From sequence record AF056273.1: a stretch of DNA of 965 bases; one strand, given 5' to 3'. Below, one piece after another: positions 1 to 965 of this stretch. Below the pieces are notes generated by a model. It did not search any database and was not told the origin of the DNA. It was given only the letters and a program-made list of their open reading frames with translations. The translations under genes were made by a program, and so were the position numbers. Source of the DNA: a phage. Each line of letters begins with the position of its first letter. Position 1 is the stretch's first letter.

Positions 1-124
1 CATTTTGGNTTCCGACCATGGAAGTGGAAGGTGGCAGTTGNAATNACGCAAATTCTTTNTTCANNCAATTCCGTTTCGNATAGTTTTGCCCGAANTATAC
101 GGTTCGCCAATATTCGAAGGANCT

Positions 125-152
125 NCGAAATTATTCATCCGGTTCGTATAAT
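125..152 (+). promoter_or_regulatory. trc (trp/lac hybrid) promoter: degraded -35 (~125-130, read as ncgaaa for TTGACA) and intact -10 TATAAT (147-152)
   Basis: Spacer reads ttattcatccggttcg and contains CATCCGG, characteristic of trc rather than tac (CATCGG). The 16-nt spacer versus the expected 17 is attributable to a dropped base. Confidence 0.75.
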
Positions 153-155
153 GGT

Positions 156-183
156 GGATTGGAGCGGATAACATTTAACACAG
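156..183 (+). promoter_or_regulatory. lac operator (lacO1), vector-borne, read with errors
   Basis: ggattggagcggataacatttaacaca corresponds to GGAATTGTGAGCGGATAACAATTTCACACA. Confidence 0.75.
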
Positions 184-196
184 GAACAGACCATGG
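182..196 (+). promoter_or_regulatory. Vector RBS (AGGAAACAGACC) and NcoI site CCATGG carrying the vector start codon (ATG 193-195)
   Basis: caggaacagaccatgg at 181-196 matches the pTrc99A RBS and NcoI junction. The plus-strand ATG is followed by an immediate stop (ATG GAT TGA), so no plus-strand ORF is expressed from it in this read. Confidence 0.7.
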
Positions 197-214
197 ATTG
201 AGTTNNNANTATCN

Positions 215-422
215 TTAGTACGAAGAGAAGACANGGGATTTCATCATCTTTCGCTTTACGAATACGTTCACGTTTAATACGNTCAGCCAGATATTTATCT
301 TGGGCCGGATCAAATTCCATTGTACCCTGAANGTACGTGGTTCCTTTCTGACGAAGTTTCTCGTAATGAAGATAAAANTCACCAAATTTTTCGCACTGTG
401 CAATAATTTCAGCTTTAGTCAT
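215..422 (-). CDS. Small hypothetical protein (~68 aa), unidentified; 3' end lies at or near the vector-insert junction and needs one frameshift correction
   Basis: ATG at 422-420 is preceded by SD AAGGA with a 10-nt spacer. Codon usage is coherent (CGT, AAA, GAA). Translation: MTKAEIIAQCEKFG(D/E)FYLHYEKLRQKGTTYxQGTMEFDPAQDKYLA(D/E)RIKRERIRKAKDDEI. If the N at 234 is a spurious inserted base, the frame continues PVFSSY to TAA at 217-215. The 95-aa track ORF running on to 135 crosses the vector RBS and lacO and is an artifact of N-masked stops. Confidence 0.55.
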
Positions 423-431
423 AGCTATAGT

Positions 432-438
432 TCCTTTT
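432..438 (-). promoter_or_regulatory. Shine-Dalgarno sequence for the small ORF
   Basis: Minus-strand reading gives ...CAACAAAAGGAACTATAGCTATG, with AAGGA (plus 433-437) 10 nt upstream of the ATG. Confidence 0.55.
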
Positions 439-459
439 GTTGGTGGATTTATCTAAATA

Positions 460-669
460 TTACTTAGTGATAGCTCGGATTGCTTCTGCCAGATGANCAG
501 CCGCTTTACCGGTCAGTTTGTCGATAATTGCATCATCCAGAAAATCTGGTGCTAAGCCAGCATCAGAGAAAGCTGAACGAAGGTCGGCATGGGCTTGANC
601 TTTGGANGTACGAGAACCACCGGAAGCTTTTTCTCCCAGTAGATGCGCTAGATTTAGAAGCAGANCCAG
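460..669 (-). CDS. 3' end (C-terminal ~70 codons) of an unidentified upstream gene, truncated at its 5' side by the cloning junction
   Basis: Open minus-strand frame ending at TAA (462-460). Translation: ...LLLNLAHLLGEKASGGSRTSKxQAHADLRSAFSDAGLAPDFLDDAIIDKLTGKAAxHLAEAIRAITK*. Codon usage resembles a well-expressed enterobacterial or phage gene (GGT, CGT, GCT, CTG). The track ORF continuing to 960 is vector sequence read through N-masked stops. Confidence 0.5.
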   Translation of the reverse strand: MXLLLNLAHLLGEKASGGSRXSKXQAHADLRSAFSDAGLAPDFLDDAIIDKLTGKAAXHLAEAIRAITK

Positions 670-671
670 CA

Positions 672-706
672 GGGATCTNTAAATCAACTGCAGCATCCAA
701 CTTGCT
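672..706 (+). other. Vector polylinker remnant: BamHI-XbaI-SalI-PstI-SphI-HindIII, garbled by read errors
   Basis: gggatctntaaatcaactgcagcatccaacttgct corresponds to GGGGATCCTCTAGAGTCGACCTGCAGGCATGCAAGCTTGGCT. PstI CTGCAG is intact at 688-693. The following ttttgcggat matches GTTTTGGCGGAT of pTrc99A. Confidence 0.75.
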
Positions 707-775
707 NTTTTTGCGGATAAAAAAAATTTCNGNCGGATNNGATNAATCGGAACCCGAACGGCCGATAAAAAATTT

Positions 776-871
776 CCTGCCGCATACCCGTGTCCACCTA
801 ACCCTCCCAATCGAATTAAANCCNTCNCCAATTTATNNTGGTTTCCCTGCAAATTGGAACTCNCGCTCNAT
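776..871 (+). rRNA. rrfB: Vector-borne E. coli rrnB 5S rRNA gene segment (part of the rrnB T1T2 cassette), heavily degraded read
   Basis: cctgccgcatacccgtgtccacctaaccc corresponds to GCCTGGCGGCAGTAGCGCGGTGGTCCCACCTGACCCC, and ccctgcaaattggaactcncgctcnat corresponds to CCCATGCGAGAGTAGGGAACTGCCAGGCAT. Preceded by the rrnB leader (gatnaatcggaacccgaacggccgataaaaaattt for GATTAAATCAGAACGCAGAAGCGGTCTGATAAAACAGAATTT). Confidence 0.5.
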
Positions 872-915
872 NAAACAAAGCCCTNCAAAAAAGGCNTCCC
901 GTNCNGTNTTTTCGN
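872..915 (+). terminator. Probable rrnB T1 terminator of the vector, too degraded to resolve the hairpin
   Basis: Position immediately after the 5S segment; naaacaaagccc...ttttcg loosely matches AAATAAAACGAAAGGCTCAGTCGAAAGACTGGGCCTTTCGTTTTAT. Read quality here is very poor. Confidence 0.3.
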
Positions 916-965
916 AACCCCCCATTGAAAACCCCGAACANTNAATTTNAANNCGCCCAATTGGG

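Follow-up and report, generated by a model that had tools for sequence, protein, structure and literature searches.

The sequence record AF056273.1, a stretch of 965 nucleotides with 49 Ns that we refer to as the window, is as a whole a cloning artefact without a natural gene arrangement. Both of its flanks are expression vector, its centre is phage DNA with its ends at positions 209/210 and 672, and its read errors rise gradually towards both ends. The best explanation, in which we place very high confidence, is a poor read over a pTrc99A-type clone that carries a 461-bp AluI fragment of a BF23-type phage in the SmaI site. A preliminary description of the window had warned that reading all of it as an operon or island would be wrong, and this is borne out by the synthetic vector junctions and by the truncation of both phage genes. 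There is no biological novelty in the window; the analysis additionally identifies the insert as BF23-type phage DNA. Its sole importance is one of data hygiene: positions 1-208 and 673-965 should be trimmed as vector, or the window should be excluded, and any promoter, operator, 5S rRNA, terminator or operon called on it would be an artefact. The usable biology amounts to 461 bp, which are already present without mismatch in the complete BF23 and VAH1 genomes.

Word searches of the flanks failed, and the pTrc99A cassette was therefore used as bait for deposited sequences. This cassette consists, in order, of the trc promoter, lacO, the ribosome-binding site (RBS), NcoI, the pUC18 polylinker and rrnB 5S-T1T2. 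The bait was then checked against deposited records in three overlapping pieces, all of which are matched at 100%. Bait positions 1-183 and 240-271 are found in NZ_CP014272.1, which holds the Ptrc-derived chromosomal dsbC cassette of the SHuffle strains; positions 181-276 (trc core with 17-nt spacer, lacO, RBS, NcoI and EcoRI) are found in KY563785.1; and positions 276-753 (SacI to the end of rrnB T1T2) are found in NZ_CP014272.1 and, from bait position 280, in NC_009716.1 too. Significance was assessed by Smith-Waterman alignment, with N as a wildcard, against 200 dinucleotide shuffles, and the positions of individual elements were taken from a global alignment of the window to an idealised clone. 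No plasmid in PLSDB matched either flank by blastn (word size 11), and neither 5S rRNA nor any other Rfam family matched the window at E ≤ 1. These failures are due to the read errors in the flanks and are no evidence against vector. A standard word-based vector screen of this window would probably fail too; at this error rate such screens fail, and sensitive gapped alignment is needed for flagging.

In gapped alignments both flanks match the expression vector significantly, in the order and orientation proposed in the preliminary description. On the left, window positions 16-202 are colinear with the trc cassette at 76% identity (163 matches, 15 mismatches, 9 N and 36 gap columns), and their score against the full bait is 151, compared with 19.7 ± 2.4 (maximum 27) for the shuffles (z = 55). 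Positions 129-189 also align with a deposited tac core (L004) at 86% identity, with a score of 81 against 16.4 ± 2.5 for the shuffles (z = 26). The colinear vector match had been expected over about 1-198; it is found over 16-202, but positions 1-15 taken alone are at chance level. This read start (+ strand) is unassignable, being colinear with the vector in the global alignment and giving z = -0.1 when positions 1-20 are aligned alone.

All the elements proposed for the left flank, namely the trc promoter, lacO, the RBS and NcoI, were recovered on the + strand. Positions 16-124 correspond to the vector upstream of the trc promoter, in the cassette the trp-promoter-derived region of tac/trc vectors; the reference for this part is identical to NZ_CP014272.1 (L003 601-782), and its identity to the read is 0.67-0.80. 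The trc core promoter, for which the reference was validated at 100% by KY563785.1, occupies positions 125-152. Its -35 element is degraded (NCGAA for TTGACA, 125-129), its 17-nt spacer reads ATTATTCATCCGGTTCG with two substitutions (130-146), and its -10 element TATAAT is exact (147-152). The lac operator follows at 157-175 and reads GATTGGAGCGGATAACATT for AATTGTGAGCGGATAACAATT, with two dropped bases. The RBS AGGAACAG is located at 182-189, and an exact NcoI site CCATGG with the vector ATG at 191-196. The stretch from NcoI to the insert, up to position 208, consists of degraded EcoRI, SacI, KpnI and SmaI-half sites; the EcoRI and SacI remnants are recognisable as GATT and GAGT, and KpnI and the SmaI half are hidden in positions 203-209, which are mostly N.

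On the right, window positions 672-880 align with the polylinker-rrnB part of the E. coli C3026 cassette (L003), from the polylinker to where T1 begins, at 71.5% identity, with a score of 109 against 20.0 ± 2.5 for the shuffles (z = 35). The polylinker, the rrnB leader and the 5S gene are thus present as had been proposed, but BamHI is not the first site, as a SmaI half-site precedes it. The rest of the polylinker (SmaI half/BamHI, XbaI, SalI, PstI, SphI and HindIII; 673-703, + strand) suffers from dropped bases, and each of the six sites from BamHI to HindIII downstream of the insert is recognisable with one or two errors; the polylinker reference is identical in NC_009716.1 and NZ_CP014272.1. 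Gapped alignment places the vector-borne rrnB fragment upstream of 5S at 704-774 (+ strand). The vector-borne rrnB 5S rRNA gene (rrf), assigned by alignment to the vector and annotated in L003 (NZ_CP014272.1) at 1672-1787, lies at 775-867 (+ strand) with 93 of its 120 bases called. The other 27 bases are missing from the read, and this is why Rfam is blind to the gene. The rrnB T1 terminator and downstream vector would be expected at 868-965 (+ strand), where the identity is 0.47-0.63 and the T1 region is colinear at chance level; T2 is located outside the window. A vector match had been expected over about 672-930 on this side. This holds up to about 880, where the significant alignment ends, and not beyond, positions 881-965, an unreadable tail, being at chance level when taken alone (z = -1.0).

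The foreign centre had been placed between about 200/215 and about 670; the centre is indeed foreign, and its start is corrected to 209/210 and its end to 672. A blastn search of a phage collection returned 519 T5-like (Tequintavirus) records matching window 200-680, and the best phage matches, over window 210-672, are Escherichia phage BF23 (OR083247.1) and vB_EcoS_VAH1 (MK373792.1). The insert is a 461-bp segment of a BF23-type Tequintavirus, on the + strand of the window, that corresponds to OR083247.1 59836-60296 (L001 3000-3460). Its 463 window nucleotides (210-672) align to BF23 59836-60295 with 451 matches, no mismatches, 9 N and 3 single-base gap columns. VAH1 is identical to BF23 over the fragment, and its 98.3% identity to the window over the 405 cleanest nucleotides is the maximum that the Ns allow. 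Phage T5 (AY543070) reaches 96.8% over the same 405 nucleotides, with Ns counted as mismatches; since this falls below the N-limited maximum, T5 has real substitutions. T5 itself was rejected as the source of the insert in favour of the better-fitting BF23 and VAH1 (98.3% against 96.8%).

Two incomplete phage genes are carried on the minus strand of the window, both antisense to Ptrc. The first 70 of the 98 codons of BF23_00131, which encodes a hypothetical protein of unknown function (phrog_3696), lie at 211-422, and the last 69 codons and the stop of BF23 D3 (136 aa; phrog_1725, "DNA binding protein") lie at 460-672, the N-terminal half of D3 being absent from the insert. The 37-nt intergenic spacer between them (423-459) holds the BF23_00131 RBS AAAGGAAC. 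The insert thus matches the D3-BF23_00131 early region of BF23 without mismatch but differs from it in being a 461-bp sub-fragment with truncated, antisense genes. No Pfam match was obtained for the D3 or the BF23_00131 protein, and PHROGs gave family names only. X residues are abundant in the longest minus-strand open reading frames, at 135-422 and 460-960, and no open reading frame looks intact. Because BF23_00131 is cut at the AluI/vector junction, the listed 95-aa frame at 135-422 continues into the vector; both of these minus-strand frames span junctions and are chimeric. We also noticed that Listeria phage LM 4-14-1 (OR849466.1, a 1564-bp record) and Campylobacter phage C13 (MG065692.1) contain T5-like DNA with 94-96% identity to the insert, and their host labels look doubtful for Tequintavirus sequence.

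The ends of the insert point to a cloning route. AGCT (AluI) sites occur in BF23 at L001 2998 and 3459, and cuts between AG and CT bound 3000-3460, giving a 461-bp AluI fragment CTATCATT...GCCAGCAG. The right end of the insert falls exactly on an AluI cut, and the left end coincides with another within the limits set by the Ns there; with 41 AluI sites in 6460 bp, such a placement of the two ends has a joint chance of about 2e-4. The right junction is unambiguous and reads CAGCAG/GGGATC (slashes mark the point of joining): the window continues from GCCAGCAG with GGATCT..., whereas BF23 continues with CTTTCTTG. The left junction is blurred by Ns at 205-209 and is compatible with GGTACCC/CTATC; since positions 203-209 are mostly N, the SmaI/AluI assignment on this side leans on spacing and on the right junction. 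Six internal AluI sites are kept in the fragment, and the digest was therefore partial. We infer that a partial AluI digest was cloned into SmaI, and that the clone came from a shotgun or expression library. According to this scheme, a 461-bp blunt fragment of a BF23-type T5-like coliphage would have been ligated into SmaI so that the phage genes run antisense to the trc promoter, with GGTACCC/CTATCATTAG as the predicted left junction and GCCAGCAG/GGGGATCC as the right one. A full-text search found no papers on BF23 with pTrc99A, or on BF23 with AluI and a library.

As for the vector, the sequence favours pTrc99A or a direct derivative, at an error rate at which single-base discriminators are weak and close relatives with the same cassette (pTrc99B/C and other plasmids derived from pTrc99A) would look much alike. 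The preliminary description had named a pTrc99A-type vector, and the 17-nt promoter spacer and the XbaI and SphI remnants speak for it. pTrc99A was reportedly introduced by Amann, Ochs and Abel in 1988. The window has all of its recognisable elements in the same order and orientation, and shares with it the 17-nt spacer, the NcoI ATG, the XbaI/SphI polylinker remnants and the rrnB leader with 5S. It differs from pTrc99A in that about 24-29% of the flank bases are miscalled or dropped and in that the 461-bp phage fragment splits the SmaI site; the lacIq, bla and pBR322 origin of the vector lie outside the 965-nt window.

It is improbable that the same construct was made in another tac/trc-rrnB vector (pKK223-3, pKK233-2, pSE380, pTrcHis, pTrc99B/C or a tac derivative), or that the insert is a Sau3AI piece in BamHI. 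The region upstream of the promoter, lacO and rrnB 5S-T1T2 are common to all of these vectors, and a read accuracy of 70-86% makes the trc/tac spacer and the extra Gs of pTrc99B/C weak evidence. However, XbaI-like (TNTAA) and SphI-like (GCATCC) remnants separate BamHI from HindIII in the window, and the pKK linkers have neither. Scored against the window, the pUC18-type linker reaches 46.5, compared with 33 for a pKK223-3-type and 11 for a pKK233-2-type linker. To fit the pKK linkers, the read would have to contain inserted bases, although nearly all of its errors are deletions; this argues for pTrc99A or a direct derivative. A tac vector is disfavoured by the spacer, which in the window reads CATCCGG as in trc; the deposited tac core (L004) has CATCGG and a spacer of 16 nt. 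Cloning of a Sau3AI piece into BamHI was rejected: the fragment ends in BF23 are without GATC and three Gs precede ATC at the right junction, so the evidence is for blunt SmaI ligation.

The IPTG-inducible promoter, the operator, the RBS, the ATG and the terminators all belong to the pTrc99A-type vector. In the error-corrected sequence, the vector NcoI ATG opens a frame of 92 codons, MEFELGTPIISTRED...LNIT (window 193-470, + strand), which reads the phage insert on its antisense strand; the 55-aa + strand open reading frame at 300-467 is a part of it. When induced, the construct would at most yield this putative 92-residue fusion peptide, an artificial product predicted from the reading frame. 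Nothing suggests that it is of significance, and there is no natural functional unit in the window. We consider it unlikely that an expression library of BF23 was screened for function and yielded this clone through a selectable effect of the antisense D3/BF23_00131 fragment or of the 92-aa peptide; if so, the effect screened for could be, for example, interference with phage growth or host toxicity. The only hint of such a screen in the sequence is that the cloning was done in an expression vector and not in one meant for sequencing.

The preliminary description had also expected the mismatch rate of a low-quality read, and this is evident from its identity to the idealised clone. In successive 50-nt bins the identity is 0.67, 0.67, 0.80, 0.86 and 0.85, then 1.00 over positions 251-600, and then 0.98, 0.82, 0.78, 0.71, 0.65, 0.63, 0.60 and 0.47. 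The errors are mostly deletions, with 112 bases dropped relative to the idealised clone. The smooth gradient and the dropped bases are what a failing read typically shows; divergence would not look like this. In the right flank (673-965), 32% of the template Gs were dropped, compared with 12-14% of A, C and T, and this looks like a signature of the chemistry or the base-caller. The left flank has no such G bias, with drop rates of 21% for G, 19% for T, 16% for C and 13% for A. The first 200 or so bases are poor as well as the last 300 or so, a pattern that one Sanger read alone seldom gives. The poor start may stem from opposed reads having been merged, or from a mixed template; a complementary excess of dropped Cs, looked for in the left flank as a sign of an opposed-read merge, was absent. 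We read the window as one low-quality, single-pass dye-terminator read, or several reads crudely merged, spanning the cloning region of a recombinant pTrc99A-type plasmid.

That vector and phage reads were mis-joined in an assembly, with no physical clone behind them, is very improbable. The fall in quality towards both ends is what a merge of two opposed reads might give, and the exact read was found in no contig collection scanned: the error-bearing read had no exact-pattern match in viral, metagenome or genome contigs (nor did the clean trc core in viral contigs). However, both junctions coincide exactly with those expected of a blunt AluI fragment cloned into SmaI, the vector arms complement each other as halves of a single polylinker with consistent orientation, and the identity is continuous over the junctions (0.86, 0.85 and 1.00 on the left; 0.98, 0.82 and 0.78 on the right). 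None of these features would arise from a random mis-join.

Least probable of all, to the point of being barely credible, is a native phage or bacterial locus in which T5-like DNA came to have an E. coli trp/lac-type promoter on one side and an rrnB 5S-terminator region on the other, for example by recombination or transduction: parts of the vector cassette derive from the E. coli chromosome and every one of 5426 E. coli genomes matches parts of the bait, but both sides of the cassette occur in only 2 of them, both engineered laboratory strains, the junctions are synthetic (the trc hybrid promoter-lacO-RBS-NcoI and pUC18 polylinker-rrnB fusions), and the fragment ends at restriction cut sites with both genes truncated. 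The native flanks in BF23 also differ from those of the window. The D3 region is neighboured there by a p15/PC4-like gene and ligA on one side and by the D2 helicase on the other, and the BF23 sequence departs from the window exactly at both junctions. When the window flanks were aligned to 6.46 kb of BF23 around the fragment and to its immediate neighbours, no similarity was found (z from -1.6 to 0.4), so the flanks are not the neighbours of the centre in BF23, and a native context is thereby refuted. The two outcomes that the preliminary description had named as refuting it, flanks without a vector match or flanks natively continuous with the centre, are thus both contradicted.

The clone that we favour resembles the Ptrc-derived dsbC-rrnB cassette of the NEB SHuffle strains (NZ_CP014272.1 and NZ_CP014269.1), which has the same vector-insert-vector arrangement with the same arms. 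Unlike the window, the SHuffle cassette carries dsbC and not phage DNA, has its core promoter and operator replaced, and is chromosomally integrated. In NZ_CP014272.1 (L003 780-860) the trc core and most of lacO are swapped for a different promoter segment, and the cassette retains the pTrc99A upstream region, the RBS/NcoI and the rrnB arm. Vector or possibly vector-related sequence was also noticed in plasmid records. Plasmid pAK51 (NC_009716.1, "Escherichia sp. Sflu5") has at 1501-2926 the pUC18 polylinker from KpnI to HindIII, rrnB 5S-T1T2 and a TEM bla gene; this stretch is 100% identical to the expression-vector cassette, and the record of a natural-isolate plasmid therefore contains an engineered vector. 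Three small E. coli plasmids from the giant panda gut (GQ149346.1, GQ149343.1 and GQ149348.1) show 89-92% identity to the bait from lacO to the polylinker, which may be lac/pUC-like vector-related sequence in environmental plasmid records.
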